Below, one piece after another: positions 1 through 19,873 of a stretch of 20,000 nucleotides of DNA. Location of the stretch: the NCBI GenBank assembly GCA_026026165.1, contig JAPEUD010000067.1:117533-137532 (forward strand), in the 5' to 3' direction. Numbering within the stretch: the first letter of the stretch is position 1; every line of letters starts with the position of its first letter. The stretch comes from Sarea resinae. Lineage: Eukaryota. Below the pieces are notes generated by a model. The model was given only the letters and a program-made list of their open reading frames with translations, was not told where the DNA came from and ran no database searches. The position numbers and the translations under genes are program-made.

Positions 1-1745
1 GAAGATCTTAGAATCTTATAGGTAATTCTCTTACAGTTTAATTTGCCTTACTACTTATTTATTGCTGTTCTACTAAGTATAAAGTAGCCTAAGTGTTATT
101 AGATATATATTATCTGCTTATTAGTATACTCTCTTTACAATTAACTAAGTTCACTTTAATATGATTTAGCCTAAGGCTTATTATTTATCTTCTTATTATA
201 TAAAGACACTCTTATTTATTTAGATTCTTTCTAGACAGACAATTGCACTTAGATACTTCTTTATCTATTAGTGTACTTATCTAGCTATTAAGAGTTGCTA
301 GTATAAGTTGACTTTCTAGACCCTTAGTGCTATCTAACTAATATCTCTTTCTCTAAGTAGGTGTATTCTATATTATTAGATTAAGTGAATTATTACTATC
401 TTCTATGTTTTTAGCAGCAGATATAGCGCTAACATTAGATAACTAACTAAGTAGGCTTTGTATTAGAGATATTATAGCTTGCTTATAATTCTCTTTATTA
501 CTATCTAATAACATTAGCTATAGTTGCTTTTAGACTAGAGAAGTAGTAGTAGTAATCACTAGATCTAAACTATATTTAGTCCTTTAGTAGTAGTCTTTTA
601 TTAAGTGTAAGTATTATAGAAGGCAACTACTTTGTTTAGTATAGATTAGATAAGTAGAGATAGAAACAAGTGTTATTATTAGTAAAGTAGTTAAGTTTTT
701 ATTCCTTAGTAGACTAAATATCTTGCTAAGAATAAGTCTAGAGTTATTTAAGAGGTATTGTAAAAGTTACTAGCTTCTCTATATAGAGCAGATTTAGATA
801 GCTAGGAGTTTAGTGTGTAGAAGACATTAGTATTAAATAGGAATTTAAAGAGAGAGAGAATTATTAGTCTAAGTAGAGATAAGTATTATCACTTAAATTA
901 TATCTTTACAAATTAACAGATAATTATATCGCTATTAGAATAACTTATATAATTAATTTAGATTTATATATACTTAGACTAATTAAAATAACACTAAACA
1001 AAATAAAAGAGACTAACTTAAAGTAGATTAGCAGATATTAGCTTCTATACCTTATTAAAGTTATCTAAAAGACACTTATAGTTTAGAACTAACTATTGCT
1101 ACAATCTCTACTAGGCTGCTAGAATAGAGTATAGTAGAAGAGTAGGTAATAACAGTCTTAAGAGTAGTAGATATATATATCTACTGCTCTTAGTATTATA
1201 AAGTCGCCTATAATTAAATAAAAACTTATATTAGCTGTGTTTATTACATGTCCTATTTGTCTTTATCTCTTTTATATATTGTAGAGTTAATAATAGAGGT
1301 TGTTATCTTTAGTATCTATATTATCTTTACTGCTAATCTTAACTTTAACTTGTAGCAGAACTAGCAGATTGTTCTTCTTTAAGGCTGTGTTATTTAGGAT
1401 ACCTCTTAACCTCTAGGTAGCTATAAGTGTATTCTTAATTATAGACTTAGTGTTAATAAATTAATATAAAGTCACCTTATTATACTAGCTAATACAGTAA
1501 ACTCTATTAAGTGCTTATTACTTAGAGGTGTCTATATAATTAGGTTTAAAGACAACTACTAGATTCGCGCGAATTAAGGTTAAGCCTAGTAATATTATAC
1601 CTATTGTCTTAACTAAGTAAAAAGGTTCTAAGCTAGAGAACATATCTATAATGCCTTAGAATTATTCTACTAACCTTAAGCGCTTTGCTATAGAGATTCT
1701 GCTATAGAATAGAGCAACTAGCTTATATCTAATATATTTTATCTA

Positions 1746-1799
1746 CTATATATCTGCTATTAGCCTAAGTATATTATCTAGTAGATAAATACTACTTAC
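1746..1799 (-). other. Relic spliceosomal intron in SNF2 pseudogene
   Basis: Minus strand reads GTAAGT...GCTAAT...TAG, 54 nt, within the helicase C-terminal lobe just after EKIVIFT. The acceptor could alternatively be 3 nt further on. Confidence 0.6.
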
Positions 1800-3181
1800 T
1801 ATTACAATAATAAAGGCTATAATTAGGAATACAGTAAAGATAACTATCTTTTCACTCTCTATCCTTAAATTCACTCCTATATTATTAATAAGATTATCTA
1901 GTGCTTTTAATTTAGAGAATAACTAGCTAAGTATTTCTAGATTGTTATACAACAGATATAATTCCTAATCCTTAGTAGCTATAGACCTAACGCTTAATAA
2001 GCTCTAGTCTAACCTAGCTAGATTAGAGTAGGTAAGGCCTAGGAATAAAGAGATAATTTGTAGTCGCTATATATATTAGAAATATATTATTAAAGTAATA
2101 CATTATCCTTTATTTAACTCTAGAATTTAGTTTGTTCTTACTACTATAACAGCTTGCTATTGTTTATATACTGTCTTCTAGTAGTTATTGCTAAACTAGA
2201 CTAATAATTTATATCTGCAGAACAGTAAGAGGTTAATTAGTAGGTAGCTGTCTAAGTCGACTGCATTTTTATCCTATTAGATTATTAGCACGCTAAGGAA
2301 GCTAATAAAATTCTAGGCATATTAATTAAAGTCTTTATTAGTAGAAGGTAGTTGCAGTCTGTTAGGTTTTGCTATGCAATTAAATAGATTTTTATACTAA
2401 CTTTTAATAAAGTCTAACTTTTTAGGCAAGCATTTTTATCTAATGCAAGAGAGATTAGTTGTCTATTAGGTATATATAAGAATGTTTACCTTCTCTCTTA
2501 AGTCTCTAGGTATAATAAATAGAGTGCTAGAGAGGAACTATATTATAAGCTAGTGTTCCTTATAGCTTTATCTTAAGGTAGTTAGGTCTTAAATTAGGTT
2601 AGTGTTCTTTAATTTAATAATGTGCGCCTTATCTACTACTATCTACTAAAATTAAGTTTCTGCCTACAAATTGCAGCAAAGTTGCAAACACTTAAACAAT
2701 GTTACTAGGATAACATTTAATCTTATATGTTTGCTACTAGAGTCTGTTTCTATTAAGTCTGCAAACTTATATTCCTATTAACTATACTTAAGAACTATTA
2801 GGTTCTTAGTAATCTATTATACAATAAACGACTTTTAGTATTCTATTACCTATATATAGGTAAGATATGCTAGGTATATAACTATATTTGCTTCTTTATC
2901 TACAGTGATTTAAGAGGTTATAGATCCTAGTTAATATAGGCATTATATCTTATAGAGGTTATTACTAGGACACTTAACGCTATATTTAGTATTGTTATCT
3001 ATATTGTCTAATAAATATAAGTGTAAGTAAAATGTTATATAATATTTAAAGTCTTATACAGATAATACCTACTACTAGCCCTTAGATATCTTCTGTTATA
3101 GATTTGCTAACTCTTTATTATATCTAAGTGATTATAGTATAAGGTCTATAAAGTAGTAATAAGAGCTAATGTTATTAGTAT

Positions 3182-3250
3182 CTGCTAGTAGATTAAGCGT
3201 TAGCTATTAATTTAAGTACATATTAAAGAGACACTATAGTAGACACACAC
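3182..3250 (-). other. Relic spliceosomal intron splitting the Walker A motif (GK|T)
   Basis: Minus strand reads GTGTGT...GCTAAC...CAG, 69 nt. Removing it joins [GFLADGMGFG]K to [T]LxTLALI, restoring the SNF2 motif I consensus. Confidence 0.7.
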
Positions 3251-3681
3251 CTTTCTAAACCCTATCCTATCTGCTAAAAACCCCTCTCTAATTCTGTTGC
3301 TTTTATTGCGTAATATAAATATAATAGCTATAGCTTAATATAGTAGTAGTTAAATAGGTGCTTAAAGAAACAGTAGCTTTATAGGTATTTAGGTTATTAA
3401 TGCAGTGTGTTTAGGAATAAAGAATATAGCTACTATATCCTTCTATATTTAGAGTGTGTCGTGTTAAATTACTAGACTATTTTAAATAACTGTTTAGCGT
3501 TTTACTATCACTAGGTTTATTCTCTTAATTAGGTTATCTACTCTCTCTAATTTGTTATACTATTTGCTAGCAAAAGCACTAAGGTCTTAGAGGCCTATAA
3601 AGTAAGGATAAAAGTTAGTAGAGGTTGTTACTTATAATCCTAGTACTTACTAAGCAGATAATGTTCTGTGCTATATAGATA

Positions 3682-3913
3682 ATTATTAGGTAGCAGATTA
3701 TTATATAGAGTATTATTAGGTGGCAGATTATTATATAGAGTATTATTAGGTAGTAGATTGTTATTTAGAGGATTATTAGGTAGTAGATTGTTATTTAAAG
3801 GATTATTAGGTGGCGGATTATTATTTAGAGGATTATTAGGTAGTAGATTGTTATTTAAAGGATTATTAGGTGGCGGATTATTATTTAGAGGATTATTAGG
3901 TAGCAGATCATTG
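3682..3913. repeat. 30-bp minisatellite, ~7.7 copies
   Basis: Unit is approximately ATTATTAGGTRGYRGATTRTTATWTARAGK, starting at 3682, 3712, 3742, 3772, 3802, 3832, 3862 and 3892. Copies differ mostly by G/A and C/T transitions. Confidence 0.95.
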
Positions 3914-4832
3914 TTTTTAACAAGTAGATAATCCTTATTATTAATGTTATCTTTGTTGCTATTATTATTATTAATGTTATCTTTGTTGTTATCTTTATCC
4001 TTAACATTCTCTTTATTAGTATCCTTGCTATTAATGTCTTCTTTATTAGCCTTATCTCTTATTAGGTTATATATAAGCTTATTAGAAATATTATCTTTAA
4101 TTTGCAGTGATAGGTCTATAAAGAGTTAGCTTTATAGTAATAAGGAATAGTACTGCGTTTAAGTCTAGCAGCTTACACTTAACGTTATAGCAACCTAGCT
4201 TAGGAACTAGTAATAGACATTGTGTTTCCTTTAGCTAATATAGTAATAACTTAGGTGTGCTACTAGACTAACTAACGCTTGTTGCAAGGCCTAGCAACTA
4301 ACTCTTTAGTAGGTGTTAGCTAGTCTTAGTAGTAGAGAGTAAGGTAGTATTTAGTGTTATTACATTTAGGTTTGTATAATATGTCTCTAGTTAGATAATT
4401 AAACAGTCTGTTGCACTAGACAGTTAACAACTATATTAAGACTAGATATAATACCTTATAGCAGACAGTGTATATACCTAGTCTAGGTCTTATCTATATA
4501 GAAACTAAGTTGTCACTAGCTTGCTTAAGGTTTCTGCGTTTTACATCCTATATAAGGTTAACAACTAGAAATCAATGTACTCCTATAAAGAGACACTTAT
4601 AATATAGAATACAATTAGTTATAGGCCTAACTTAAGTACTAGTACAACCTCTTTATTATGTTCTAATCTAATTCTCTCTCTCTCTATATCTGTCTTAATC
4701 TTATTAATAATTGCTGCTTATAGGATAAACCTAGCAATAATATTACAAATACTATCTATAGTTAGAGATAATAGTAGGAAAAGTTAAGTGCTTATCTTAT
4801 TATCTATTGTTATATACTATTTAGCTAGTTAG

Positions 4833-5299
4833 TTGTCTATTAACTATTAGTAAATGTTAGTTAATAGATAAATATATATACCTCTTACTTATTAGTAGTC
4901 TTATAAGAGAAGGTGCTATGTAGATAGTTAGTAGATAAGAAGGTATTAGTGTATAAAGAGTAGTAAGGCTACTAGGTAGAAGGGTATTAGAGTTAGATTA
5001 ATTGTTTATTAGCTATTAGCAAGTGCTATTTAATTAATATAATTAGATGTCTTCTACTTATAGATGTCTTTATAAGCTGCTAAACAGTCTAGTTAGTAGC
5101 TTTATACTAAGAAGAAGCTAGTGTATAGATAGTAACTACTAGAGAACTACTAAGTAGAAAGGTATTAGAGTTATATTAAATGTCTATTAGTTGTTAGCAA
5201 GTGCTATTTAATTGATATAATTATATATCTCTTACTTATAGATATCTCTATAAGCTACTACAATGTTTGTTTAGTAGCTTTCTACTAAAAGAGAGCTAG
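4833..5299. repeat. Degenerate direct repeat of ~170-178 bp period (2 clear copies + 1 partial)
   Basis: 4983-5121 aligns without gaps to 5161-5299 (GGTATTAGAGTTA...TTAGCAAGTGCTATTTAATT...TACTTATAGAT...TTAGTAGCTTT...GCTAG). A more diverged partial copy lies at ~4833-4892. Confidence 0.8.
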
Positions 5300-6531
5300 C
5301 TAGCAAGGGGTAGCTAAAGTACTAAAGGTATTAGATAAGAGCAACAGCAAGGTTCTACTTTTAGATTGTAGTTCTTTCTTTATATTGTCTTATAGCTTCT
5401 TACAGATATCTTATACAATAATAAATAGGTGTTTCTAATTGTAGCTCTATCTAGCAGCTTATCTTCTAATTTAGTCTGCAAATAGTATTAGAAAGTTAGC
5501 AGACTATATTATATCCTCTATTATAGTGTTAACTGTATAATTTCCTGCTGCTTAAAGGTTAGTGCAGCTGTAGTCAGATAATACTTACTAGATAGCCCCT
5601 TATAATCTAGTCTTAGCTTTATTTAATGTGACACTTAGATTTAAGTACACTTCTAATAGCCTCTTTTTTATAAGTTCTTATACTTAAGAATTAGGTCTTA
5701 TAACTGTCTCTTATTCTAGTTGACAAACTATATCCTATTATATCTCTTATTAGTTATATCTATTGTATAATAAGAGAGTAGCTTACTTAGCTAGATTGTT
5801 ATAATATATTAAGAGGTAGAGAGATAACTAGTAAAGAGAATAAGTAGAAAGTAATTAAGGCTAAGAGTATAGCACTAAACTTAAGTTTAGTATAATAAGA
5901 ATAATTAGGCTGCTAGGCTAAGAGAGATATAACAAGCTAAAAGATAAAACATAAGAGAATATAAGTAGAGAGCTAATAAGGCTAGAGATAAAGTTAATAT
6001 CTTAATAGAACAATTATCTAAATTAGTAACAAAGTAAGGTTATATCTAGTAGGAATTCTTAATTAGGCTAGACTAGGTAGTAAGGGTTTTATAGCTTTAA
6101 TATTAGATAAATAATGTGTTAGCGCAGTGTAAGGTGAATAAGAGTAGTAGCAGCAAACAAGAGTAGTAGAAGTAAATAGAGATATAAGGTAAATAGAGAT
6201 CTAACTAAATAAAACAAAGAATAATAACATTATAACATGTAAGAAAGAAGATAAAGAAATGTTGCTATTATTAACTGTTTCTAGCTATTAGCACTTAATA
6301 CTATTAGTATATCTAGTGTGTAATATTGCACCTCTAACTAATATTATATCTAATATGCAATATATTATATAGATAATAGTTTGCTTGTGTTTTAGACAGC
6401 TATTAGTGTAGGAGTAAGGTTAAAGCAATATAAATAGCAGCACTACTTATATAGTGTCTACTTAGTGATAAAAGTCTAATAGTTAGTCTACTACTTAAGT
6501 GAACTATCTGCTAATATAATGTTAAGATAGA

Positions 6532-6536
6532 GTCTT
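6532..6536 (+). repeat. 5-bp target-site duplication (left copy, GTCTT)
   Basis: GTCTT lies immediately before the 5' LTR and recurs immediately after the 3' LTR (15055-15059). Confidence 0.95.
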
Positions 6537-6680
6537 TGTTATCGGCACTGGTGCATCCATGGTGGTACCAGGCCCCTGTAGCTTAGCGAGCCAGCATATT
6601 AGCGCTTGCAGGCTCTTAGCAGTTTAGAAACTAATCCACTTATCATCATCATACGGACCGTCCATGGTCAGCCCGTGCCA
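6537..6680 (+). repeat. 5' LTR (144 bp)
   Basis: TGTTATCGGCAC...CCCGTGCCA, identical base for base to 14911-15054. Confidence 0.97.
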
Positions 6681-6682
6681 AA

Positions 6683-6700
6683 TGGTATCGACGGCGCGTT
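6683..6700 (+). promoter_or_regulatory. Putative primer-binding site (tRNA-type, initiator-Met-like)
   Basis: TGGTATCGACGGCGCGTT begins 2 nt after the 5' LTR. Its complement ends in ...TACCA like a tRNA 3' end. Confidence 0.6.
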
Positions 6701-6862
6701 CTTTGCTTTTGCTTTGAAATTGTCTTCTCGAGATCCATTATATCTCACGGAGACCCCAGGTTGTCATCAAACAACCTACACGTTAGAAACGGTCTCACAC
6801 CTAGAGCCAGCCGTTTGTTTACTACGGACTTTCCATAGTCCCTCCCACGATGCGATAGCCCT

Positions 6863-9800
6863 ATGGCTCGAGACTCAGCTTTGCAGCCTGACCAAGTTCT
6901 CCAACTCGCTGATCAGCTCCTCGCATTACAGAGGCATCATCCAGATCTCCTACCACCGGAGACATCAATATTACTTGACCAGCTAAGCACGCACCGCCGA
7001 CCGAACACACGCCCAACGTCACGACCCCCCTCAAGTGGGAACTCAAACGGAGAATCCGACGGATTTCCTGGCATTTGGACCACTGATTCAGCCCGCCGAA
7101 ACACCGCTATTGCCAATTTCGAGAACGGTGCCTTTCAACTTCAACAGTCACGACGCACCGGTGGATTACGTCATTCGCTAGTCCCACCTTCAGTTGGCAG
7201 CATCGCTGGACCTAGCATTGGTCATTCTACAACTTCACCCGACGAGCCTTCCAACTCAGAAGACATCCCAACAGACACGGGGTCATCGTCACCCGAACAA
7301 TCAGCAGCAGCATCGGGAGTTACCGAAGACGTCATCGATCCGGCAAGAATCACACCAGCCCGACCGAACGACAACGCCCACACACGTTTGGAACCACCAC
7401 GACGTGACCGTGCCCAATCAAACGAGCCCATCATGTCTCAATTATCCCCCCAAGCCCTTGAACAAATTCAAGCCATGATTACTGCTGCAGTACGAGCAGG
7501 CGGAAATCACAACGGTCCCCCCGGTCCCCCTGGCCCTCCTGGCCCACCAGGAGAACCCGGAGAACCCGGAGAACCCGGCGAGAACCGCTATACCGGACAA
7601 TGGAAAGCCGCCGAGATCGGCCTCTTCTACCCCAACCTCCCCGGAGGAGACACCGACGCTCATACCGACGTCGTCGACAAAGATAATAAAACTTTCTATC
7701 GCGATGTGTACGCTTTCACCAATCGAGTCCGAGTCGCTGCCCTAACGCGGGATCCCACAAAAATACGCCAGAATCTGGACTCTTGCCTGCGAGGAGAAGC
7801 CGAGCAGTGGTGGAATACCGAATTGTCTGAGGTCACTAGACTAGGCCTTGTCGCCCACCCGAACGGAGTCGAAGAATGGTGCAAAGCTTTAGAGAAAAGA
7901 TTCAAGCCTACCCCAAGTGCTTCCTGGAATAAATACCAGAACACCCGATACACTGTGGAGGATGCGAGGAGTCACCGCAGCCTCGGAGAATATGTGAGCA
8001 CCTTGGTAGCAGCGGCAAAGGGTTGTGGACAAGGTGACTCCGAATTCGGTCTTGTTACCCAAGCCTGGATGCATTTGGCCCAGCCGTTACGCAAGTACAT
8101 TGACGAACCTACCGAAGACACAACGCTAGAGGGTTTTGCAGAGATACTCCGAAGGAAGCAGACAAACTGGTTCGACGAGTTTAGACGTCAACCTGCACAA
8201 CCTACAGGCCGACAAGGTAATAATAATCGCAGTCAACAGCAGCAATCCAACCTACAATCACAGTCCAATGCTCAGTTCAACCCGCCTCAGTACAATAACG
8301 CTTACAATTTCCGAAATCAGGGCTACCAACCGAACTGGCAACAGTCATATCGTTCCCCGTGGCAACAAACTCCGTGGCAAAACCGGCCTTCTTGGCGTCC
8401 AGGGTCGGCACGAGGAAGAGGACAGCTGCCTTTCCGTCCTCAACCACGCCAAATAACGTCGGGCGGAGAAAGACCGTCAGGTTCCAATAATAATAGCAAT
8501 ACTAGAGGGAATTGGAACAACCAATCCAATAGCAACAGAGGCAATTGGAATAATCAGTCGCAACCATGGCGTCAAGGAGGATTCCCACGTCAGCCCGGAG
8601 CTGCCTACCATGGAGACACCGAGGAAGGACCACAGAACGAAACAACTTCCCCAGAGGGCATACCAGACGAACAAGCCAACCCCGGTAACGACCACGATGC
8701 CGAAGCATACCAAGCATGGGAAGACTCGTTCTACCAAGGCTATGCCTACGCCCATTGGCAAAACCAGGAACAGCCCGAGGAAACCGTTAATAATGCTAAT
8801 CAAGAACATGATCGTGACGGTGATAACAACGGTCAGTCCAATGACGAGGAGGTCGATGCCCACCATGCTACTTTCCACGTCGCATCAACCACAGAAGCTA
8901 CCTGTCGACACTGTCTCCAAACGTTTCCCTCCAGGACTAAGATGTTTAAACACCTGCGGAATGACTGCAGTAAAACCAAGAATATCCAAAACGCCGAAGT
9001 CCTAAACGCCGATATCAGAAACACCGAAGCACGCACCGCCGACACCGAGCCTAGCGACATCACTATCCTTGCGTCCGACGCCTCGGATCTTAAGGGTGAT
9101 GGTTATGGTTTCCGAGGATATCAGTACGTCACGGCAAAAGGCGGACTTACCGTTGAAAAAACCAATCACGATATGTGCTTGGATTCAGGTTGCACGATGT
9201 CCCTCATCGACAGAGAGTTTGTCAAGCGACATGCCCCAACATCGACCACGGTAGAACGAATGGCTTCACCGATCATGGTACGAGGAATAGGCAGTGGCAC
9301 GCACAAATCAGATGAATACGTGACCATGAGCGTCTACTTTCCAGGGACGAAGCCCGATAACAATAGATTGATCGCTAAGATTACGAGGGAATTCCACATC
9401 GTCGATCATCTTAAGGCCAATGTTCTGCTCGGAATCGACGTGCTTGCTCCGGAACATATCGATATTAGCGTATGGAAGAAGCGAGCCACCATCTTCTCCT
9501 GCGGTGGAATAGAAATTCCCCTCACGGTGACGACAAAGGATAAACCAATTGACCGTGTCGTCAAGGCCGCGCAACGACTTACTATCCCCGCCCGGGCCAA
9601 GAGGGCCATCCCGATCGTCTATCGGAAAAACCTACCGAAAGACCGAGATCTATTGTTCGAACCAAAAGGGAAAATGCTACCCAGCGACATAAGCATCTAT
9701 GCCCATATCGTCGACAGCAACGTCTGCGAAATACACGTGCGCAACGACTCTGGCCGGTCTATTACAATCCCTAAGAACACGAAACTAGGGAACATTATTG

Positions 9801-12800
9801 AATATAACGCCGAAGGTTGTTTCATGGCCAACCCAGATACAGAAAGTATGGCCGCTATTCCTGCGGGACACAAACGCCCATCTCGGAAGCCTAACTGGGC
9901 AAAACGCACAGTAAAGGCACTGCTTACTGCTGCCGTGATGCATGGAACGACCCAGCCGAACCGTGAGACCACCCTCACAAATGGAATTACCATCTACGGG
10001 GACCGCCAAGCCTCTAACGCAATCGGCGAAGCTGCCATGGAAAACCCGGACTTATGGATTGACAATGGGAATACTGTCGACATTCCAGAAGATCAATGGA
10101 TGTCCGTTCCCCTAACGGACAACTGGAAAGAAACCTACAAGCCACAAGCAAAGGTCTACCCGCTTGGCACGACTGACAGAGAGGTCGTGGACCGAGAATT
10201 TGATAAACTACACGACCAAGGCCGTATGAATTGGGCGACCGAGGAAACACCGTTCAGTTTCCCTTGTTTCGTTGTCTGGAGAGACGTCGGGAACGGTACC
10301 CGTAAAGGACGAGTAGTAGTCGACATCAGAGCATTGAACAAGATTACAATTCCTGATGTCTATCCAATGCCCGCTCAAACCGATATCATATCCGCAGTCC
10401 AAGGCGCCGGATTCATATCCACAGTGGATTGCTCATCCTTTTTCTACCAGTGGCGCGTCCGGAAGAACCATCGTCATCGCCTTGCAGTGGTGTCCCACCG
10501 CGGGCAAGAGATCTTTAACGTGGCCGTTATGGGTTTCAAGAACTCGCCTGCCTACGTTCAACGGAGAATCGACCAAATATTGCGCCCACTCAAACAATTC
10601 TCCAGAGCATACGTCGATGATATAGTGATATTTTCGAAATCACTTGACGATCACCTTCAGCACTTAAGGACCGTATTCAATACACTCACTCGAATGGGAG
10701 TATGCCTTAAGCCTACTAAATCCTTCCTCGGCTACCCATCGGTTCAGCTACTAGGCCAAAAGGTAGACGCGTTTGGACTTACCACGGCCGCAGAGAAACT
10801 GAAGGCGATATCCGACGTGACTTTCCCAGAGAATCTCCGAGGACTAGAGAGATATCTAGGAATGACTGGATGGTTACGGCAATATATCCCATACTACGCA
10901 GCAGCATCAGAGCCTTTACAGCAGCGAAAAACACTTCTCACTAGAGGAATATCCACTGGAAAATCCCACACTAAAAGGAAATTCGAAGCAATCAAGACCA
11001 ATCTGGCGCTACCGACTCCCAAGGAAATTACGTCATTCGATCTGCTCCAATCCTTATTCTCGCGACCCTCTATTCTAACCCACTTCGACATATGCAGGCG
11101 ACTGTACGTTGACCCAGATACATCGAAAGAAAGAGGAATCGGAGTCATGATATACCACGCCACAGAGGACGCAGCGGATCCACCCAGGAAAGACCAAGTG
11201 CAACCTATCATGTTCCTTAGCCGCCTCCTCACAAAGGCCGAGATGAACTATTGGCCTACCGAAATGGAAGTCGCCGGACTGGTATGGACTATGAAGAAAA
11301 TTCGTCATATGGTTGAATCATCGAAACAACCAACTATCGTTTATACGGACCATGCAGCTACGCTAGGGATCTGTAAACAAACTAGCCTAAGCACCTCATC
11401 GACCGACAAGCTGAATCTCAGGCTGATAAGGGCCTCCCAGTATCTTCAAAGATTCTCGCTCGACGTCAGACATAAGCCAGGGAGAGCACACATCGTGCCA
11501 GACGCCTTATCGCGCCTATCAACGCTGGACAGCTCTCCGCCTGACCAGCCCGGAGTACTGGACACGCTGTACACCTACCATTCCGAACTAGTTGAAATAA
11601 GCCCACAATTCCGAGGACGGCTCATCCAGGGTTATATCGATGACCCCCGTTGGCAGTGGATCAAGCAGATGATCCTCGATAACGACGCACAGGACGATAA
11701 TGCCACGGAACTACCCTATAAGATAATCGAGGATCTGATGTATTACATCAACCCAGACGGGCACCAGAAGTTAGGAATTCCACAAGCTATGATACAGGAA
11801 GTGTTCAAGCTAGCGCACGACGAAGGAGGGCATCCCGGGTACGATCGTACCCATGAGCGCGTCTCACAAGGACTCTACATCCACAAACTTGGGAAACACC
11901 TTCGGGAATACCTTCGCCACTGCCCTCAATGCCAGCTTAACATGACTCCTCGGCACCGTCCCTATGGTTCTATGCAACCTATAATCAAACCAGCTATTCC
12001 ATTCTACACCATAACGATCGATTTCATCCTGGCATTACCAAGGTCCGACCCGGATCACTTCGACTGCATTATGTCGGTAACCGACAAATTTTCTAAACGC
12101 GTCACCTTTATACCCGGAATGGCCAATCATAAAGCCAAGGACTGGGCCGCTTTGATGTTGGACCGACTAAGCATAGCGGACTGGGGCCTACCAAAGATAA
12201 TCATCTCCGATCGAGACCCTAAGTTCCTCAGTGAATTATGGAAAGCACTGTTCAAATTGCTGAAAGTGGAGCTCCTATACTCCACCGCGTATCACCCTCA
12301 AACCGACGGACAGTCTGAGCGCACAAATCAGACCGCAGAGATAGCCCTCCGATACTACATAGGAGCACTACATGACTCTAAAGGATGGCCCACAGTACTT
12401 CCTATGATGCAGGCTAGACTAAATAATTCGGTCAACTCTACCGGAGTCTCCGCGAACGAGATAAATTACGGATTCAGACTGACAGAACCAGTGGACTTTC
12501 TGTCAAGAAACCCACTCCCAGAAGCACCAGATAATCTCAAAGACTTCGCTAACCGTTACCGGCCCGCACGAATCGAAGCCGAGGAGGCTATCTCCCTGGG
12601 GAGCATGCACGCTAAAATGCACTACGATAGGCGACATGCCGCCATGTTTCTTAAGGCAGGCGATTATGCCAATCTGCGGTTACACCGTGGATATTCCGTA
12701 CCAGGAATAAGGAACAGAAAAATCTCGCAGCAGTTTGTAGGACCATTACGCATTAAAAGAAAGGTAGGCCGCCTAGCTTACGAGCTCGACATACCACCAG

Positions 12801-13147
12801 GATGGAATATTCATCCAGTTTTCTCCATTGCCCACATAGAACCGGCGTCTGCACCGCAGGAAGACCCATTCCAACGTCGTCAAGAGGAACACCCTCCGGA
12901 GGTCGAGGTAGAAAGTGGAGAAAGTCTACACTATGAGGTAGAAAAGGTACTCGATAAAAGGGTCATACGGCGCGGCCGCGGAAGAACCGAGAAAACAGAA
13001 TACCTGATAACCTGGAAAGGCTGGGGCCCCGAATATGACAGATGGTATGATAGAGAGGATCTCCAAGACTGCGAAGAACTGCTTGAAGATTATGAGCGCG
13101 AGGTCCAAGGTCTTCCACCTATCAATCGGGACGTAAGCCCTAAATGA
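6863..13147 (+). CDS. Gag-Pol polyprotein (2094 aa, single frame): Gag, Zn finger, aspartic protease, RT, RNase H, integrase, chromodomain
   Basis: Gag-like WKAAEIGLFYP. Protease CLDSGC (DSG at 9182-9190). RT with VDIRALN, FYQWRV, MGFKNSPA and YVDD (10610-10621). RNase H DPDTS/TEME/YTDH/PDALSR (from ~11111). Integrase HHCC (11816-11932) and D(12020)-D(12209)-35-E(12317). GPY/F-like FVGPL and a C-terminal chromodomain. An alternative start ATG lies at 7433. Confidence 0.97.
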   Translation: MARDSALQPDQVLQLADQLLALQRHHPDLLPPETSILLDQLSTHRRPNTRPTSRPPSSGNSNGESDGFPGIWTTDSARRNTAIANFENGAFQLQQSRRTGGLRHSLVPPSVGSIAGPSIGHSTTSPDEPSNSEDIPTDTGSSSPEQSAAASGVTEDVIDPARITPARPNDNAHTRLEPPRRDRAQSNEPIMSQLSPQALEQIQAMITAAVRAGGNHNGPPGPPGPPGPPGEPGEPGEPGENRYTGQWKAAEIGLFYPNLPGGDTDAHTDVVDKDNKTFYRDVYAFTNRVRVAALTRDPTKIRQNLDSCLRGEAEQWWNTELSEVTRLGLVAHPNGVEEWCKALEKRFKPTPSASWNKYQNTRYTVEDARSHRSLGEYVSTLVAAAKGCGQGDSEFGLVTQAWMHLAQPLRKYIDEPTEDTTLEGFAEILRRKQTNWFDEFRRQPAQPTGRQGNNNRSQQQQSNLQSQSNAQFNPPQYNNAYNFRNQGYQPNWQQSYRSPWQQTPWQNRPSWRPGSARGRGQLPFRPQPRQITSGGERPSGSNNNSNTRGNWNNQSNSNRGNWNNQSQPWRQGGFPRQPGAAYHGDTEEGPQNETTSPEGIPDEQANPGNDHDAEAYQAWEDSFYQGYAYAHWQNQEQPEETVNNANQEHDRDGDNNGQSNDEEVDAHHATFHVASTTEATCRHCLQTFPSRTKMFKHLRNDCSKTKNIQNAEVLNADIRNTEARTADTEPSDITILASDASDLKGDGYGFRGYQYVTAKGGLTVEKTNHDMCLDSGCTMSLIDREFVKRHAPTSTTVERMASPIMVRGIGSGTHKSDEYVTMSVYFPGTKPDNNRLIAKITREFHIVDHLKANVLLGIDVLAPEHIDISVWKKRATIFSCGGIEIPLTVTTKDKPIDRVVKAAQRLTIPARAKRAIPIVYRKNLPKDRDLLFEPKGKMLPSDISIYAHIVDSNVCEIHVRNDSGRSITIPKNTKLGNIIEYNAEGCFMANPDTESMAAIPAGHKRPSRKPNWAKRTVKALLTAAVMHGTTQPNRETTLTNGITIYGDRQASNAIGEAAMENPDLWIDNGNTVDIPEDQWMSVPLTDNWKETYKPQAKVYPLGTTDREVVDREFDKLHDQGRMNWATEETPFSFPCFVVWRDVGNGTRKGRVVVDIRALNKITIPDVYPMPAQTDIISAVQGAGFISTVDCSSFFYQWRVRKNHRHRLAVVSHRGQEIFNVAVMGFKNSPAYVQRRIDQILRPLKQFSRAYVDDIVIFSKSLDDHLQHLRTVFNTLTRMGVCLKPTKSFLGYPSVQLLGQKVDAFGLTTAAEKLKAISDVTFPENLRGLERYLGMTGWLRQYIPYYAAASEPLQQRKTLLTRGISTGKSHTKRKFEAIKTNLALPTPKEITSFDLLQSLFSRPSILTHFDICRRLYVDPDTSKERGIGVMIYHATEDAADPPRKDQVQPIMFLSRLLTKAEMNYWPTEMEVAGLVWTMKKIRHMVESSKQPTIVYTDHAATLGICKQTSLSTSSTDKLNLRLIRASQYLQRFSLDVRHKPGRAHIVPDALSRLSTLDSSPPDQPGVLDTLYTYHSELVEISPQFRGRLIQGYIDDPRWQWIKQMILDNDAQDDNATELPYKIIEDLMYYINPDGHQKLGIPQAMIQEVFKLAHDEGGHPGYDRTHERVSQGLYIHKLGKHLREYLRHCPQCQLNMTPRHRPYGSMQPIIKPAIPFYTITIDFILALPRSDPDHFDCIMSVTDKFSKRVTFIPGMANHKAKDWAALMLDRLSIADWGLPKIIISDRDPKFLSELWKALFKLLKVELLYSTAYHPQTDGQSERTNQTAEIALRYYIGALHDSKGWPTVLPMMQARLNNSVNSTGVSANEINYGFRLTEPVDFLSRNPLPEAPDNLKDFANRYRPARIEAEEAISLGSMHAKMHYDRRHAAMFLKAGDYANLRLHRGYSVPGIRNRKISQQFVGPLRIKRKVGRLAYELDIPPGWNIHPVFSIAHIEPASAPQEDPFQRRQEEHPPEVEVESGESLHYEVEKVLDKRVIRRGRGRTEKTEYLITWKGWGPEYDRWYDREDLQDCEELLEDYEREVQGLPPINRDVSPK
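7514..7585 (+). repeat. Collagen-like Gly-X-Y repeat in Gag N-terminal region
   Basis: (GPP)4(GEP)3GEN = 8 Gly-X-Y triplets. The DNA contains a GGAGAACCC 9-mer repeated three times. Confidence 0.9.
12932..13097 (+). other. Chromodomain at integrase C-terminus
   Basis: YEVEKVLDKR...EYLITWKGWGPEYDRWYDREDL...ELLEDYE. The aromatic-cage positions (Y of YEVE; W and W of WKGW) are all aromatic. Confidence 0.92.
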
Positions 13148-13412
13148 AGAACGCGAGCACCACGGATTCACCAAGTATTGATATCCAAGGCTCGAAACAT
13201 CAATAACATTCACAATTCGCTTCACCGGCATTAATAGGACTACTTGAGATGGCGTCGCTCAACTCACTCTACTACCATCTCACCTCACTTACTCAACTCC
13301 CAACATCTAATTCGCTTCGGATTCCACCCAACTTTCGACATCTCACCTCATTCAACTTACTCAGTTCTTTGCTCAGCACTAGCTTATCGTGTTCGCCGTT
13401 GCTACCGGCAAG

Positions 13413-14720
13413 ATGCCTCAAACCGCGGGAGGAGCTCACATTATGGAGCCCCTAATCGAAAACATGGTTTCGTACGAAGCCGAGTTGAAGAAACCCGAGT
13501 GGGATGGCATACACGGCCGCCTGATCAAGGTATTACCACAGCAGAACCATATCGCCGTGCTCAAGAAGCACAGCTTCAAGATTGATGACGAGCCGCCTGA
13601 TGAGCCAGTCAAGGATACTATCACATCTGATATTTGGACAAAGACTTTTGCCGGAATGACCAAGGATGAATTGATTGCCAGAACTCTCAAAACCAAAAAG
13701 ATCATCAGGGCAGGCAGAAAAGTTTACCTTCGCATCGTGGCTGGTTCAGAATCAAAAACATATGACTTAATCGACTCTACCGGGACCCACGTGGCGAAAA
13801 CCAACATCCTGTGGCATGGCCGTTTCGACAATGAGCGGTATCGCCAGGGGATTGCCGCCCAGAAAATTCGCGAATACCAAGCCGAGGTCTCCAGCATTGA
13901 GCGAAAGTACAACGATGCCGTAACGGAGTGGCAAATCGAACAGAAACGGTGGGAGGAAAAACTAGTCCTACAACTTTGGGATGAGAACGAGAGACGCAAG
14001 GCCAATAATCAGGAACCCGTCGCCTTATTTCCTCCATACGTCACCTCTCGAGACCAATTGGGCGACTTCCCCATGGAAATTCCGGAGCCGTATTCGAAGA
14101 TACCAATCTGGAAAGCCGCTAACTACTGCGCCGATTGTCAAAAACCGATGCCTAATTACTGTGATGGCTGCCAGAGACAACGTGACCTCGACATTGCACG
14201 CGAAGACCAGGACGACCCCCCGGCCGATCCCCCTCAGGACGATAACAACGATCTTTTCCTACCTCCGGCTGATGACGCCCCAGACCCTGACGTCCAGATG
14301 GGAAACTCAGACGCGGAAACCATTGCTAGGCGCGAACATCATCGCCACAGCAACTCTGAGGACGAAGCGTGTCGCCCACCAAACGGAGAGATGAGTTGCC
14401 TACCCAACGGTTTTCAACCTGGGAAATCGCTTCCAACCCGTGGAATCACCGTGCAAAGTTCATCCACACTCAGCTCCCCTGACACTTGGTACTCTGCCAG
14501 GGCCGACGGAATTCTCTCAATCTCAGAGATCTCTACGAACGACATGCCAACTACCTTTTCATACGAAGCTGAAGAGGATAGGGAGAGACGCGTCGACTCC
14601 TTCGTGTTCGTAGCCGCCGATCCTGCAGAGCGTGAAAGAACCCGCGCGTTCCTAGAGGAGAGGCTTGCCAGCCAGCGATCCCGTTTCAGTGCTTTCATGA
14701 CACTAGTCCGTGGACCCTGA
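13413..14720 (+). CDS. Additional ORF of unknown function in the env position (435 aa from first ATG)
   Basis: Open 13389-14720 with the first ATG at 13413 and an in-frame TAG upstream at 13380. It lies entirely between the pol stop and the 3' LTR. It has a charged, probably coiled-coil segment (~13860-14000), a CxxC-x7-CxxC motif (14127-14171) and an acidic Pro/Asp tract. No signal peptide or TM segment is visible. Confidence 0.8.
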   Translation: MPQTAGGAHIMEPLIENMVSYEAELKKPEWDGIHGRLIKVLPQQNHIAVLKKHSFKIDDEPPDEPVKDTITSDIWTKTFAGMTKDELIARTLKTKKIIRAGRKVYLRIVAGSESKTYDLIDSTGTHVAKTNILWHGRFDNERYRQGIAAQKIREYQAEVSSIERKYNDAVTEWQIEQKRWEEKLVLQLWDENERRKANNQEPVALFPPYVTSRDQLGDFPMEIPEPYSKIPIWKAANYCADCQKPMPNYCDGCQRQRDLDIAREDQDDPPADPPQDDNNDLFLPPADDAPDPDVQMGNSDAETIARREHHRHSNSEDEACRPPNGEMSCLPNGFQPGKSLPTRGITVQSSSTLSSPDTWYSARADGILSISEISTNDMPTTFSYEAEEDRERRVDSFVFVAADPAERERTRAFLEERLASQRSRFSAFMTLVRGP

Positions 14721-14770
14721 TCATGGAAGATCTCTGGTCGGCCCATCTATGTCCGCCTCTCACGCGTTCG

Positions 14771-14851
14771 AGCGTTCCGACATATCCCTTCCCGTTTTCG
14801 TTTGTTTCTCCAGCGTTCCGGCACAACCCCCTACCCGTTTTCATTTCTCCA
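14771..14851 (+). repeat. Imperfect ~40-bp tandem duplication in the 3' untranslated region
   Basis: AGCGTTCCG...CCCGTTTTC...TTTCTCC occurs at 14771-14811 and again at 14812-14850. Confidence 0.7.
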
Positions 14852-14901
14852 TCGTGTATCTACGCTTTCTCTGCGAGGGCGCAGAGCTTTTCTTTCCTAT
14901 T

Positions 14902-14910
14902 GCGGGCAGA
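14902..14910 (+). promoter_or_regulatory. Weak candidate polypurine tract (GCGGGCAGA)
   Basis: Assigned by position only, immediately 5' of the 3' LTR. It is 7/9 purines and is preceded by a pyrimidine-rich run. Confidence 0.3.
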
Positions 14911-15054
14911 TGTTATCGGCACTGGTGCATCCATGGTGGTACCAGGCCCCTGTAGCTTAGCGAGCCAGCATATTAGCGCTTGCAGGCTCTTAGCAGTTTA
15001 GAAACTAATCCACTTATCATCATCATACGGACCGTCCATGGTCAGCCCGTGCCA
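14911..15054 (+). repeat. 3' LTR (144 bp)
   Basis: Identical to 6537-6680 and followed by the TSD GTCTT at 15055-15059. Confidence 0.97.
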
Positions 15055-17930
15055 GTCTTATAATAGAGTATTAACTGTAGTATATCTAGCATTTTAATAT
15101 TAAATAAAGAGGTAGAGCAAGAATAGTAGAGTAACACTGCATATAAAATCTGCATTTTAGCTAATAGCTGCTATATACATGTAACATATATTAGAGGCAC
15201 TACCTTATATTATACAATAGATAAACAGTGTACTAGGTAGTTAGGTAGGTAAGGTACTATAGTAGATATAGTACCTACCTAGGTATATCTTAGACTATAA
15301 TGTAGTAGGTAGTTACAGTCTACTTAGATTTATATAGCTACTGTATAATAGTATACTAAGAGATATACAAATATACTTAAGAGTACCTTACTATAATATT
15401 GTGCTATAGTAGTCCTTAATAATAGACTAGAGTATGTAGTACTATATAGAAGCAGATTAATAACTAATACAATTAGTAGATTATCTTATTTATATACAAA
15501 TTAAGTCTAGTTTATTACTAAATTTATCTGTGTCTTTAGCTAAAGCAGGTCTTTAAATCACTTAAACACTGATTAGAGTAGCTAACCTACTATACAAAGC
15601 TAATCAGATATTTAGACTAGTGTATAGTGTTATCTATTAGTTAACTTTTATTATATAGATAATATAATAGACTTAAATTAAACACTAATATATAGTTTAT
15701 ATAATAGAACGTTATATAACTACCTCTAAAGAAGGTGTAGTAGATAATTAGGTTTCTTTACTAAGGACTAGAGAAAGCTTCTGCTAAACGCCTACTATCT
15801 TACTATAGTTACATGTTATAGAGATACTTTTATTATCACACTATACACACTTATTATAATTAATTAAACTATCTAATGCATAATAATAAGAGCGCTTTTT
15901 TAGTCCTTCTAGTATACTGTATTTATCTATGTATATAATCTTATTAGTAAGGCAGATAGGAATTTTATTTGATATATAACAACAGTTATCTCTTAGTAAC
16001 ATCTAATAGACATATATAGTATATCTACTTACTACTACTTAGGTAGCAAGATAATAGCCTCTTCTAAGGCAGACTACTTTTGCTTGTATATTTAGAGCTA
16101 GTAATAAGAGGTACTTAGTAGGATAGAAGTCCTACATTATTAGTTTAGGTCTAATCCTATAATTAAGTGATATACTATCTGCTTACTCTTCTTTTAAATT
16201 GTAAATTTCTGCAATCTATCTATTTATTAGGTTTTATACAGATATATATCTCTTTAGAGATGCTAGATAATAACAATTAGTAGATAATTATCTCTTAGGT
16301 AAAGATAGTCTAGTTATCTAGACATATGTTATTAAATAGTTATAGTGTTATGTTATAAGCTACACTTATAATTTTTAAACGTATAGTTTCTTCTAGAAAA
16401 AGTTTAAAGGCAGACTCTAGCTTACTATTATATTTAATCTAAAACGTCTAGTAGTTAATATCTAAGTCTATCTAAACTATCTTATAGCTAGGTATATAGC
16501 GTCTAATAACTTATTAGATAGATTCTATTAAAGAGAATAGAAGAGAGTGTATCTAAGATTTAAAGGTGTTCTTTCTATAGTATATATCTTAGATAATATA
16601 ACGTTTAACTATCTAGTATATAAGGATATAGATATTAAATAGGTATTAGATATTACTTACTAGTTAGAGTCTTTATACTAGAAGTTAATATTTCTACTGC
16701 GCTAGTAGATAGTAGTGTACTACTATTATCTTTACCTTCTCTATTATTATTATTAGTTGTGTCACTATCTGCTATAAGAGGACTATATTCTCTCTTCTCT
16801 TAATCTCGCTCCTTTTTACAACAATCTTAGATAATAATGTATAAGCATTCCTAATAGTCTGCCTATTCTTAAGGTTGTTATTTAAAGTAATTTGCTAGGG
16901 CTAAAAGAAAGTCTACCTGCTAGATTATATCTCTAATTAAATTATTAACTTGTTTAGCCTCTACTTAGATAGTGTTATATATCTTATACTAACTTATAAT
17001 GCGTTTTATATAATGTTGTAATACTGCCTTGCTTTTATTTATTAGATTAAGAGTATAATATGCGTCTAATAGCTAATAATAAGATAATTGTTTAGATTGC
17101 CTAGATAGTTAGTTTAAAGGACTAGAGAGTAGATAATAAAGGCTACTAGTAGTTAGCTAACAAGGTGCTTTTCTCTACTAAGTCTCTCTAGTTAGTAAGG
17201 TGCTAATCTTATAGAATTAGGTGTACTATATAGGTCTGCTAGAGTTTATGCTTTTTCTAGGTAAGAGTAATATAATAATTATGCTTAGGAAGTCCTATCT
17301 TAATATAAGCTTAATATAAAGGTGTGTGTTAATTAACATGTGTGTAGAAATAGAAATCACTGCCTTATCTACCTATATTAGTATAAACATATAGGTTGCC
17401 TATATACTAACACTAATATCACCTAACTAACAACTTAGTCACTCTTTAGACTTTTAAACTCGCCTCTATAAATATAATGTGTAAAGCAATTACCTATACT
17501 ATTATATGTATAGCAACAACTACTAGAGGATATTGCAATGTTAAAATGCTATATATATAGTTATAATACAACACACTCTCTATAGTTAACTTTATATATA
17601 AGACGCTACAATCTACTGTTATTTAAGAAACGCAACAGACACTAAAGCAAAACAGTAGATATTAGCTCTATAATTAACAACGACACTAATAGCTACACTA
17701 ACTGCAATATTCTAGCAGATATCTATAGTAAGACAGATATTAACTACGCTAAAGATTAACTAGATTATAATAGTAGTTAGTTGTTAGATAGAGTAGCTTA
17801 TAAGACTACATTATATATATAATTACTAGTAAAGCTTATAGCTATCTAGTTAATAGCTTATCTATTAGCAGGCAAACTATATAAATTGCCTAATTAATTA
17901 AATAAAAGACATAATATATACCTTAGTTAA

Positions 17931-19873
17931 TCTTAGGCGCTATTTAATACTGCTAAAGACTATAAACTAGTGCAGTAGTTTCTATAGAATAATATTACCT
18001 TAACTATAATTAATAAGTTCTTTAATAACAATATTATAAGATAGGACTACTCTAGTTTCTAATCTGTATATACTCTGCATTAAAAATTAGATAGGATATT
18101 AACTATACCTAGAACGCTAGGTAGAGAATAGGAAGAAATATCTTTCTTAGAGTATTATAATAAGAAGATACAGATATATTTTAAAGATCTCTTAAGATAT
18201 ATTTTGTTTCTACTTAGACACCTACAGTTTAAAGAGGCGCTTGTATATTTGCCTATAAAATTATATAGAGAATAGAATACTTAACTATACTTAGATATAT
18301 ATACTAAGAATTAGTAGTAGCAGACTTAGGTATATAAATCACACTTATTTAGTATTAGATATAGTGCTAACTATCTACTAGAATACACTGCCTAAAAACT
18401 TAACACTAGTCCTAGTAATCTATATATCTAATAAAACTTATCTAACTAATTTCTTAGGCGATAAGCATATATAGCTAATATATCTTATAATTAGTAACTT
18501 GCTAAGCACGCTTTAAGCTAAACCTTTATTATAAGCGACTATTCTTTTAGGTCTCCTACTAGTTTATCTAAAGCAAATTAAAGCAAATAACATTTAAGAG
18601 CAGAATTATTATTATTAACTATACTATAATAGACTAGATTAGGCTCTTTAGACACTTAGAAAGCTAGAAGAGAATAGTATATAGATACTATATATAGATA
18701 GTTATACTTAGAATTGTTTTCTACAGCTTACTAAGTAGGTAGCTAACTATAAAGAGGTTATTACAATATGTAGTATTATATAAGGCTACTATCTAGTATA
18801 TAAATGTCTATAGGCTAACCTTAGTTATTATCTAGAAGATAATAACTAGATAGTAAGAGATTTAGCAAACTACTAGCAACTTCTAAAAGAGAGTAATATA
18901 TAAACGCTAGAGTAGAAAGGTGTTAGAAAGACATTTAATAGCCTCTAGTTTCTGCTAGGTATTAACATCTACAATCTGCTAAAACTAGATCTACTGTATT
19001 AAGTTTATATAGGTATACTATAGCACTTTCTAAACTAGCTAGCAGCATTCCTACTTCTACATAAATAACTAAACACTTTTAACTCTCTATAGACTGTAAT
19101 ACTAGTGTATCTAATTTTTAGTCTGCTAACTAAGACCTATCTCTAGATATTATAGTAGTAAGAGAAGGAAATACAGAATATAGTGAAATTCCTAGTCCTT
19201 ATTATAGCTATATTATTAGCAAATCTATTTATATAACAGCACTAGGATTTTAAGCAAGCAATAATATATATACAGTCCTTTATTAACTTTATCTTCTTTG
19301 TATAACTATATACTTATAACAATAAAACTCTTTAGTGTATAGACCTTCTACTAGATATCTTCTATAAACATAAAGCTATTTTCTAGAGATTTTATACTAA
19401 TAAAAGAACAGTAGCTATAGCGCGCTTAGTATCTTAAACAGCATATGCTATAGCATTATAAAGAGCTTTATAAAGAGCTTCTTAGCTAACAGCTAATAGA
19501 AAGCAAAAGCAGAAACATAGTGCATATTCTAATAAGGGTTAGAGAAGAGAAGATAGTATATAGTAGGCAAAGGATTGTGTAAAAGAAGAGGCTCTAAAAG
19601 CAGGTGCATATTTTAACTTCCTTAAGATATATATTATTAGTCACTATATATCTATAATCAGATAATTTAGGTCTTTTTATAGCTTCTTTACTAACTGTTT
19701 AGAGGCTCTCTACTAAACAACAGTAAAGTTAGGCTAGTAAGCATTAAATTATTAACATACTACTCTATAGATATTAAAATACTATAACTAACATTTCTAT
19801 TTTAAGGCGTGTGAGATAGCTATAGAGAGGCTATTATCTTCTAATATAGTACAGATATTAAATACTAGATTAC
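17931..19873 (+). pseudogene. RIP-inactivated Plavaka-type transposase (5' end not defined; 3' end cut by an insertion)
   Basis: Colinear motifs, de-RIPed in brackets: S*ALFNTAKDYKLVQ*F [xWAPF...LxQWF] at 17931; LYLDIYTKN***QT* [LYSDMHTxDWWWQTQ] with TAGTAGTAG at 18312-18320; SNKTYLTNFLGDKHI*LIYLIISNL [SDKTHLTNFSGDKxxWPIYLTIGNL] from 18427; YIDSYT*NCFL [CxDGxTRxCFP]; *VANYKE [WVADYxE]; LDLLY* [PDLLHQ]; ***EKE [QWQGKE]; YFNFLKIYIISHY [HFNFPKMHxxSHY] at ~19610-19647; EALY [ExLH]. One frame is maintained on each side of a single intron. Confidence 0.88.
18330..18381 (+). other. Relic 52-nt spliceosomal intron in Plavaka transposase
   Basis: GTATAT (probably GTATGT before RIP)...GCTAAC (18366-18371)...TAG. 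Removing exactly these 52 nt restores the reading frame between the WWW and SDKT motifs. Confidence 0.82.

Follow-up and report, generated by a model that had tools for sequence, protein, structure and literature searches.

This study concerns a stretch of 20,000 nucleotides from Sarea resinae (GenBank assembly GCA_026026165.1, contig JAPEUD010000067.1, positions 117,533 to 137,532 of the forward strand), referred to below as the window, in which repeat DNA mutated by repeat-induced point mutation (RIP) is split by a younger retrotransposon. We find that this decayed DNA holds the relics of two divergently oriented genes, one for a SNF2-family ATPase on the minus strand and one for a Plavaka transposase on the plus strand, and that both relics are repeated to the same extent in a public sequencing run of the same species. 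These results suggest that the flanks of the retrotransposon are probably one copy of a large Plavaka transposon family, with about 15 copies, which carried the SNF2 ATPase gene and moved together with it as one mobile unit. We infer that a single pair of transposon ends enclosed both genes; these ends would lie outside the window.

The RIP-mutated flanks

The two flanks, at positions 1-6536 and 15060-19873, are alike in composition. A composition scan gives a GC content of 0.27-0.28 in both (0.275 on the left and 0.27 on the right), a TpA/ApT ratio of 1.63-1.69 (1.68 and 1.63, respectively) and a (CpA+TpG)/(ApC+GpT) ratio of 0.45-0.53, so that the RIP indices are much the same on either side of the insert. 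The central insert at 6537-15059 shows a GC content of 0.51, a TpA/ApT ratio of 0.73 and a (CpA+TpG)/(ApC+GpT) ratio of 1.08, and the GC content is back up to 0.61 from position 19874 on. We compared these values with the thresholds for RIP of TpA/ApT above about 0.89 and (CpA+TpG)/(ApC+GpT) below about 1.03, which are reportedly those of Margolin et al. The flanks pass both thresholds, their copies differ from each other by transitions, and their reading frames are broken by in-frame stops, all 102 of which in the SNF2 core and the Plavaka frames are either TAA or TAG. The flanks are classic RIP DNA. A preliminary description of the window had put the uniformly RIP-mutated sequence around the retrotransposon at about 11.4 kb, and the GC content and RIP indices of both flanks bear this out: at least 11.4 kb of such repeat is visible once the retrotransposon is spliced out. 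The same description stated that no element ends are seen in the window. We likewise find that the left part of the repeat reaches the window start and leaves it there, while the right part is interrupted at 19873.

The Plavaka transposase relic

The Plavaka relic on the plus strand, which the preliminary description had recognized, is supported by three lines of evidence. Firstly, when stops are read as X, the translation of 18391-19029 matches the Pfam family PF18759 with 55.3 bits (cut-off 26.3) and an E-value of 8.2e-15, and a weak upstream piece of PF18759 is found in another frame. Secondly, a phmmer search with 18301-19500 against 1.84 billion representative proteins returns 258 proteins at E of 1e-3 or below, 52 of them at 1e-10 or below, with a best value of 6.7e-27. 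All 16 of the long top matches that were checked are Plavaka transposases with PF18759, and among the ten best matches the nearest named homologue is from the ascomycete Dactylella cylindrospora. Thirdly, a RIP-aware profile built from 13 full-length homologues (990 columns) aligns with two blocks of the window. The block at 17841-18327 covers columns 87-245 with a score of 220.1 half-bits against a null maximum of 61, and the block at 18379-19834 covers columns 245-732 with 758.9 half-bits against a null maximum of 53, while the other four frames remain at null level. On these sequence grounds the presence of a Plavaka relic on the plus strand is beyond doubt.

The two blocks join at profile column 245 in different frames, with a GTATAT donor, a GCTAAC branch site and a TAG acceptor between them, which indicates a clean fungal intron of 52 nt in phase 0 at 18330-18381. 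The upstream exon at 17841-18329 contains 16 stops in 163 codons, and the main exon at 18382-19836, which includes the DDE core and the sequence beyond it, contains 45 stops in 485 codons without a frameshift. Together, the Plavaka frames have 61 stops in 648 codons and no frameshift at all. The last quarter or so of the transposase is missing because a GC-rich repeat begins at 19874. At the positions of the SSDxTHLT, caD and ADhmE motifs, which were read by eye and carry no statistical score, the residues are either identical or one G>A or C>T change away, such as N for D and Y for H. Membership in this family would imply a DDE-type cut-and-paste mechanism with a short target-site duplication (TSD).

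The SNF2 ATPase relic

The SNF2 relic is much harder to see with conventional searches. No Pfam match to SNF2-rel_dom or Helicase_C was found even at E of 10 or below in 12 whole-frame and four short translations with stops read as X, and a word-seeded search for homologous proteins with the RIP-mutated SNF2 translation returned nothing at the same limit. We attribute the Pfam miss to saturating RIP, and it is not an argument against SNF2 ancestry. A phmmer search of the PDB with the minus-strand translation of 1401-1880 gave 19 matches at E of 10 or below, in 11 of which a SNF2 ATPase aligns at motifs V-VI. Among these 11, the Rad54-like structure 1z3i ranks first with a marginal E-value of 0.027; the remaining eight are ABC transporter binding proteins, which are unrelated and have E-values in a similar range, and two of them outrank it. 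The same search with whole frames gave 0, 13 and 0 matches, all of them marginal.

For this reason, the relic was examined with a score that takes the decay into account. The RIP-aware score is a codon-level log-odds, comparing the probability of a codon given the aligned residue or profile column with its probability given the background, where each ancestral C has become T and each ancestral G has become A with a probability of 0.5; its expected value on flank DNA is -0.78. An earlier version, which scored the best ancestral residue, had a positive expectation that made it useless, and it was replaced by this model. The E. coli protein RapA was also tried as a lone SNF2 reference and proved too distant (z of 2.8 or below). 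The profile finally used holds 54 bacterial SNF2 cores (624 columns), which were fetched with a degenerate DNA pattern of motif VI and were required to carry a Walker A motif and a DExH box; all six members checked with Pfam have SNF2-rel_dom and Helicase_C.

When this profile was run against the six frames of the joined flanks, a single frame on the minus strand reached 166.7 half-bits over 2900-1370 and columns 210-606, whereas the column-shuffle null had a mean of 38.7 and a maximum of 47.3 (z = 32) and the five remaining frames scored 31.6-50.4. The same frame scores 111.0 (z = 24) without the RIP model when stops are tolerated, and 140.8 with a second profile made from other SNF2 proteins. 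The alignment runs through motifs Ia, II, III, IV, V and VI in sequence. At 2622-2639, motif II has the letters VVDKAH, which revert to the DEAH type by C>T and G>A changes alone, and motif VI reads ALNRVYCIS followed by a stop at 1488-1514, with residues that revert to the DRxHRIGQ type by single changes of the same kind. The core at 1370-2900, which runs from motif Ia to motif VI and into a C-terminal tail, lies in one frame with no frameshift and has 41 stops in 511 codons. A separate exon at 3253-3352 on the same strand, in a frame that differs from that of the core, holds motif I (Walker A, LADxxGxxK). This exon alone is borderline, its score of 47.3 over columns 162-194 being at the null boundary, but it is collinear with the core, so that columns 162-194 and 210-606 follow each other on one strand with the motif spacing of SNF2 helicases. 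These results support the minus-strand SNF2 relic named in the preliminary description, and they confirm that the two relics are divergently oriented.

A candidate intron of 66-69 nt with the pattern GT..GCTAAC..CAG was found by pattern scan and reading at 3182-3250 on the minus strand, directly after the GLGK codons. Splicing out 3250-3182 would place a codon compatible with Thr (ATA from ACA) after GLGK, and there is a further change of frame before 2900. The SNF2 gene thus probably contained introns, although this is less rigorous than for the Plavaka intron. Of the earlier claim that both relics have introns, the part concerning the transposase holds cleanly and the part concerning the ATPase is probable. 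More generally, genes that are invisible to Pfam in RIP-mutated DNA can be recovered when codons are scored by log-odds under a model of C>T and G>A decay.

Copy number and variation of the repeat

To see how often the two relics occur, we used a public sequencing run of the same species (run X1), which contains 59% of the sampled words of 1290-6536. At a likeness of at least 80%, 3138 of its contigs align on the window. The summed contig depth is 5840-8631 in all 20 bins of the flanks, including the first bin at 1-1334 (5840-8451 on the left; 6149-8631 on the right, from 15342), and falls to 3819 in the junction bin at 14675-15341. There is no difference between the bins of SNF2 (6024-7536), those of Plavaka (7037-7758) and those between them (5840-8631), and the depth per position agrees as well, at 2873-4961 for SNF2 and 2914-5140 for Plavaka. 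The longest single contigs of the flanks are 168-226 bp long, differ from the window by about 10% and have a depth of 360-426. The summed depth is therefore about 15 times that of a single contig, which indicates that about 15 variants overlap every position. Such equal depth over both genes indicates that the SNF2 relic is multicopy, at the copy number of the transposase. The preliminary description had already taken the SNF2 gene to be multicopy, and the contrast between 6024-7536 over this gene and 480-502 over the retrotransposon bears it out and removes the single-copy case.

The differences between the copies and the window consist of 158 A>G, 141 T>C, 107 C>T and 103 G>A, that is, 509 transitions against eight transversions. 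These variants are independent RIP outcomes on one ancestral sequence. Among the 3138 contigs, 54 fit only in part, and loose ends supported by at least two contigs occur only at 6536/15054, where they mark a site without the retrotransposon, and at 19874-19878; the fifty weaker loose ends are not itemised in the breakpoint listing. A junction between the two relics in other copies would have spoken against a common element, and no well-supported breakpoint of this kind is seen in the contigs of this run. Two further runs from the same study but from other organisms (X2 and X3) match the window with only four and ten short low-complexity pieces, respectively.

SNF2-Plavaka pairs in metagenomic loci

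The preliminary description had also suggested looking for intact SNF2-Plavaka neighbourhoods in other fungal genomes, and such neighbourhoods were found in metagenomes. An alignment of 12 Plavaka proteins served as the query for a scan of JGI metagenome contigs and yielded 80 loci with their flanks, 907 kb in all. The SNF2 profile matches four of the 80, namely L178, L182, L183 and L187, which represent two independent sequences, as the first three are 99.3-99.6% identical to one another. In L178 and L187, Pfam identifies a gene with SNF2-rel_dom and Helicase_C beside a full Plavaka transposase, in tandem arrangement in L178 and divergent in L187, where the SNF2 frame has two in-frame stops. 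The two loci are 57% identical in the SNF2 protein and equally 57% identical in the transposase, with the gene order rearranged, and an upstream open reading frame (ORF) is also conserved at 31%. The equal identities indicate that the SNF2-Plavaka pair diverged together despite the rearrangement. No terminal repeats were found in L178, L182, L183 or L187.

The SNF2 proteins of these loci belong to a clade of about 26 close relatives, which includes proteins of Tuber aestivum and T. brumale, and beyond these relatives only bacterial proteins are found, at 26% identity or less. This compact fungal clade (L178:3162-5168, L187:638-2812 and proteins P0151-P0176) is marked by a DESH box and an aberrant motif VI, has several paralogues in both Tuber species and forms clusters of up to 49 near-identical members. 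From its sequences, the DESH-box clade looks transposon-borne and is perhaps of bacterial origin. This precedent shows that the SNF2-Plavaka architecture exists, and not that the window descends from it.

Taking both cases together, it is conceivable, and we propose it only tentatively, that Plavaka elements of Pezizomycotina recruited SNF2 ATPases as accessory genes at least twice, once with the canonical SNF2 of the window and once with the bacterial-like clade of L178 and L187. If this is true, ATP-driven chromatin remodelling encoded by transposons would be a recurrent feature, alongside demethylation by TET/JBP, and such remodelling could open the chromatin of the element for excision or resist silencing by heterochromatin.

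One transposon or two repeats

The uniform depth, the lack of a supported breakpoint, the equal degree of RIP on both sides and the frames without insertions or deletions together support a single repeat that holds both genes. The preliminary description had gone further and made the SNF2 gene a passenger of the same multi-gene element. What stands of this proposal is that the gene is multicopy, with equal depth, no well-supported breakpoint towards the transposase and precedents elsewhere; that it shared one pair of ends with the transposase is left as the probable part, as the ends lie outside the window and no molecule links the two genes.

Several observations weigh against one mobile unit and need to be set beside this support. 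No terminal inverted repeat, TSD or element end is present within the window, and a repeat search in purine/pyrimidine (R/Y) space, which is blind to RIP transitions, detected no inverted repeats above shuffle level there. The estimate of about 15 variants derives from summed contig depth, which is no copy number, and the flank contigs are only about 200 bp long, so that no single molecule joins SNF2 and Plavaka. The run itself may come from another strain or from the source sample of the assembly, in which latter case it is not independent. The metagenomic pairs are also distant from the window, as its SNF2 relic is not of the L178/L187 clade (70.5 against the clade profile, compared with 140.8 and 166.7 against the generic profiles) and its transposase is no particularly close relative of those linked to SNF2 (ranks 17 and 55-78 of 230). 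Moreover, 76 of the 80 Plavaka loci have no SNF2 gene within the fetched flanks, and neither do L189, L193 and L203 upstream of transposases that share 77-84% nucleotide identity with that of the L178 type. Presumably about 0.6 SNF2 neighbours would be expected by chance in that much fungal DNA, a rough estimate made without computation.

These points leave room for other explanations, the first of which is that two repeat families lie side by side in a RIP-mutated mosaic, for example with Plavaka beside or inside a SNF2-carrying repeat, and were never mobilized together. AT-rich blocks of RIP DNA are, as general knowledge has it, typically nested mosaics, and the ends outside the window, the roughly 5 kb of unassigned DNA between the SNF2 and Plavaka relics and the large majority of Plavaka loci without SNF2 would all agree with such an arrangement. 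However, it would require that both families have equal copy number and always the identical junction, and the uniform depth over the flank bins, with no multi-contig breakpoint between the genes, makes it unlikely in our judgement. A second explanation, which we regard as rather improbable, is that a larger repeated unit, spread by other means than the Plavaka transposase, contains both relics as passengers; it could be a segmental or tandem duplication or a Starship-like carrier. The repeat does run to both ends of the RIP-mutated DNA without a boundary, as a larger unit would, but serial segmental duplication explains some 15 dispersed-looking variants that differ by RIP less well than a transposon burst does, and the repeat contains a transposase gene of full-length type, in frame and with its intron. 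No relic of a tyrosine recombinase or of another gene was found in the RIP-mutated DNA, where the tools are weak. A third idea takes SNF2 as a host gene that is present once and has decayed through RIP leaking from neighbouring repeats. The known spill of RIP into adjacent unique DNA (general knowledge) and the Pfam miss that made SNF2 look doubtful at first lent it some colour, but it is essentially excluded by the depth over the SNF2 bins (6024-7536), which matches the remainder of the repeat and is about 15 times as high as in a single contig, and by a saturating mutation load of 41 stops in 511 codons.

Known elements and a possible role for the ATPase

Plavaka elements belong to the CACTA/EnSpm-related 'CMCT' clade, and they are represented by PlavakaA and PlavakaB of Kojima 2025 (PMC12730594) and by the Plavaka elements of Tuber (PMC12581995). 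In the portions of these two sources that were available, their termini are given as TGT..ACA, CATCA..TGATG or CATAC with a TSD of 2-3 bp. The repeat in the window resembles these fungal Plavaka elements in having the same PF18759 transposase, in being multicopy and in being large. Some fungal members also carry an accessory TET/JBP gene that acts on chromatin or DNA marks (PMC12730594, available text). In the window, by contrast, the probable accessory gene is a SNF2-family ATPase, and the word 'snf2' occurs 0 times in the available text of PMC12730594 and PMC12581995. The window family differs from known Plavaka elements also in that every copy seen has been killed by RIP.

The giant Plavaka elements of the red alga Bostrychia, which are 17-19 kb long and carry the accessory genes PAG1-3, offer a second comparison (10.1101/2025.02.11.637652, in the part available). 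They are likewise very large, hold several genes and have tandem arrays by an accessory gene, and chromatin or DNA is the predicted target of their accessory proteins, namely an N6-methyladenine (6mA) methylase with a SET domain and ParB with a 2OG oxygenase. They are found, however, in another kingdom and with other accessory genes, and SNF2 is named in that part of the source only as an expanded host family. The metagenomic loci L178 and L187 come closer in one respect, since a Plavaka transposase adjoins a gene with SNF2-rel_dom and Helicase_C, with a divergent orientation in L187 as in the window, but their aberrant SNF2 lineage with the DESH box is not that of the window. The KDZ giant transposons of Cryptococcus (6-11 kb) and the Starships (10.1101/2024.08.15.608186) are large fungal mobile elements with extra ORFs beside the mobilizing enzyme. 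They differ in using other transposase or recombinase families, and no SNF2 ATPase is reported for them in the available part of this source, where 'SWI2/SNF2' appears only in the name of the SWIM zinc finger. In the literature searched, itself available in part and with the original 2014 description of Plavaka and the consensus-sequence supplements outside it, we found no report of a SNF2 ATPase as an accessory gene of Plavaka, KDZ or CACTA elements. The link of KDZ and Plavaka transposases with TET/JBP genes, to which the preliminary description appealed, stands as such, but for the role of SNF2 it serves as an analogy only.

What might such an element have done when it was alive? We envisage two divergent, intron-containing genes, one for a Plavaka transposase and one for a canonical SNF2 ATPase, separated by about 5 kb of non-coding spacer with tandem arrays. 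The transposase would cut and paste the element, and the ATPase would be carried as an accessory gene. By analogy, this ATPase would spend ATP on shifting or removing nucleosomes or bound proteins, either on the DNA of the element or at its target sites, and such remodelling would aid excision and integration or counter heterochromatic silencing. We propose that the ATPase may have opened or protected the chromatin of the element, a proposal modelled on the TET/JBP-bearing Plavaka and KDZ elements (PMC12730594) and on the accessory genes of red algae (10.1101/2025.02.11.637652). The element would first have been amplified, and RIP would then have acted on all copies by C>T and G>A changes only, leaving 41 and 61 in-frame stops without frameshifts and killing both genes. 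A retroelement would later have inserted between the genes, and another repeat would have cut the 3' end of the transposase.

Transposons that carry enzymes for chromatin or DNA marks, as known for the TET/JBP genes in fungi and the methylase/SET and ParB-oxygenase genes in red algae, show that mobile elements are not just targets of host silencing but manipulate it themselves. To this set of enzymes, a SNF2 remodeller encoded by a transposon would bring a mechanism driven by ATP. The copy in the window is dead and irreversibly decayed, and it is the intact SNF2-Plavaka loci that could be tested at the bench.

The retrotransposon, the right end and the spacer

The insert between the two flanks is a young retrotransposon without RIP at 6537-15054 (plus strand), which is not part of the Plavaka element. 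It is bounded by two long terminal repeats (LTRs) of 144 nt each (6537-6680 and 14911-15054), which are 100% identical and have TG..CA ends, and by a TSD, GTCTT, read at 6532-6536 on the left and 15055-15059 on the right. Its pol ORF at 6839-13147 (plus strand) is a frame of 2102 amino acids with RVT_1, RNase H, integrase zinc-binding, SH3 and chromo domains, and this set identifies the insert as a Ty3/Gypsy chromovirus. The TG..CA LTRs, the 5-bp TSD, the order of reverse transcriptase, RNase H and integrase and the C-terminal chromodomain all agree with this assignment, and an Atlas search of the retroelement returned no taxonomy. In the contigs of run X1, the letters that follow 6536 at the loose end are those found from 15060 on, which reveals the empty site in other copies of the flanking repeat. 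This empty site and the structure of the insert indicate that the preliminary description was right to splice the retroelement out.

The retroelement is represented in the same run by a single contig with zero differences and a depth of 480 (bins 480-502). With its identical LTRs and roughly single-contig depth, it looks like a very recent and possibly single-copy insertion, which would explain why it is untouched by RIP. A second ORF of 445 amino acids lies between the chromodomain and the 3' LTR at 13383-14720 (plus strand). It has neither a Pfam family nor a usable Atlas match, and it could represent an additional gene of the retroelement.

At the right end of the window, positions 19874-20000 are the start of another GC-rich (61%) sequence, repeated and free of RIP, which cuts the transposase relic. 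Loose ends of the contigs at 19874 (four contigs) and 19878 (three contigs) reveal that the GC-rich sequence is preceded there by other DNA. Its presence in at least two other contexts indicates that it is the end of another repeated element that escaped RIP.

In the spacer, the R/Y search detected two arrays of 30-bp tandem repeats at 3669-3916 and 3931-4050 (R/Y identity 0.93-0.98), and both lie within an open frame of 161 codons at 3640-4125 on the minus strand, which owes its existence to these arrays. A tandem repeat of about 178 bp follows at 4827-5316, with two full units and part of a third: 4965-5138 and 5143-5316 have an R/Y identity of 0.94, and 4827-4907 matches both. The preliminary description had reported traces of further genes between the relics, and this is not upheld, as only tandem arrays and low-complexity matches were found there. 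A RIP-aware comparison of the joined segments 1-1400 and 3301-17900 with 400 of 562 ORFs that flank metagenomic Plavaka genes gave only low-complexity matches to the arrays. Six extra ORFs of L178 and L187 gave nothing above null except at these arrays, with a sensitivity for unknown families that is low in RIP-mutated DNA. The arrays at 3669-4050 and 4827-5316 sit between the divergent genes, and the giant Plavaka of red algae likewise has arrays beside an accessory gene, according to the part of that source available. Finally, two contigs of run X1 replace about 60 bp at 4244-4306 by 33-37 other letters, which represents a small structural variant among the copies of the repeat.

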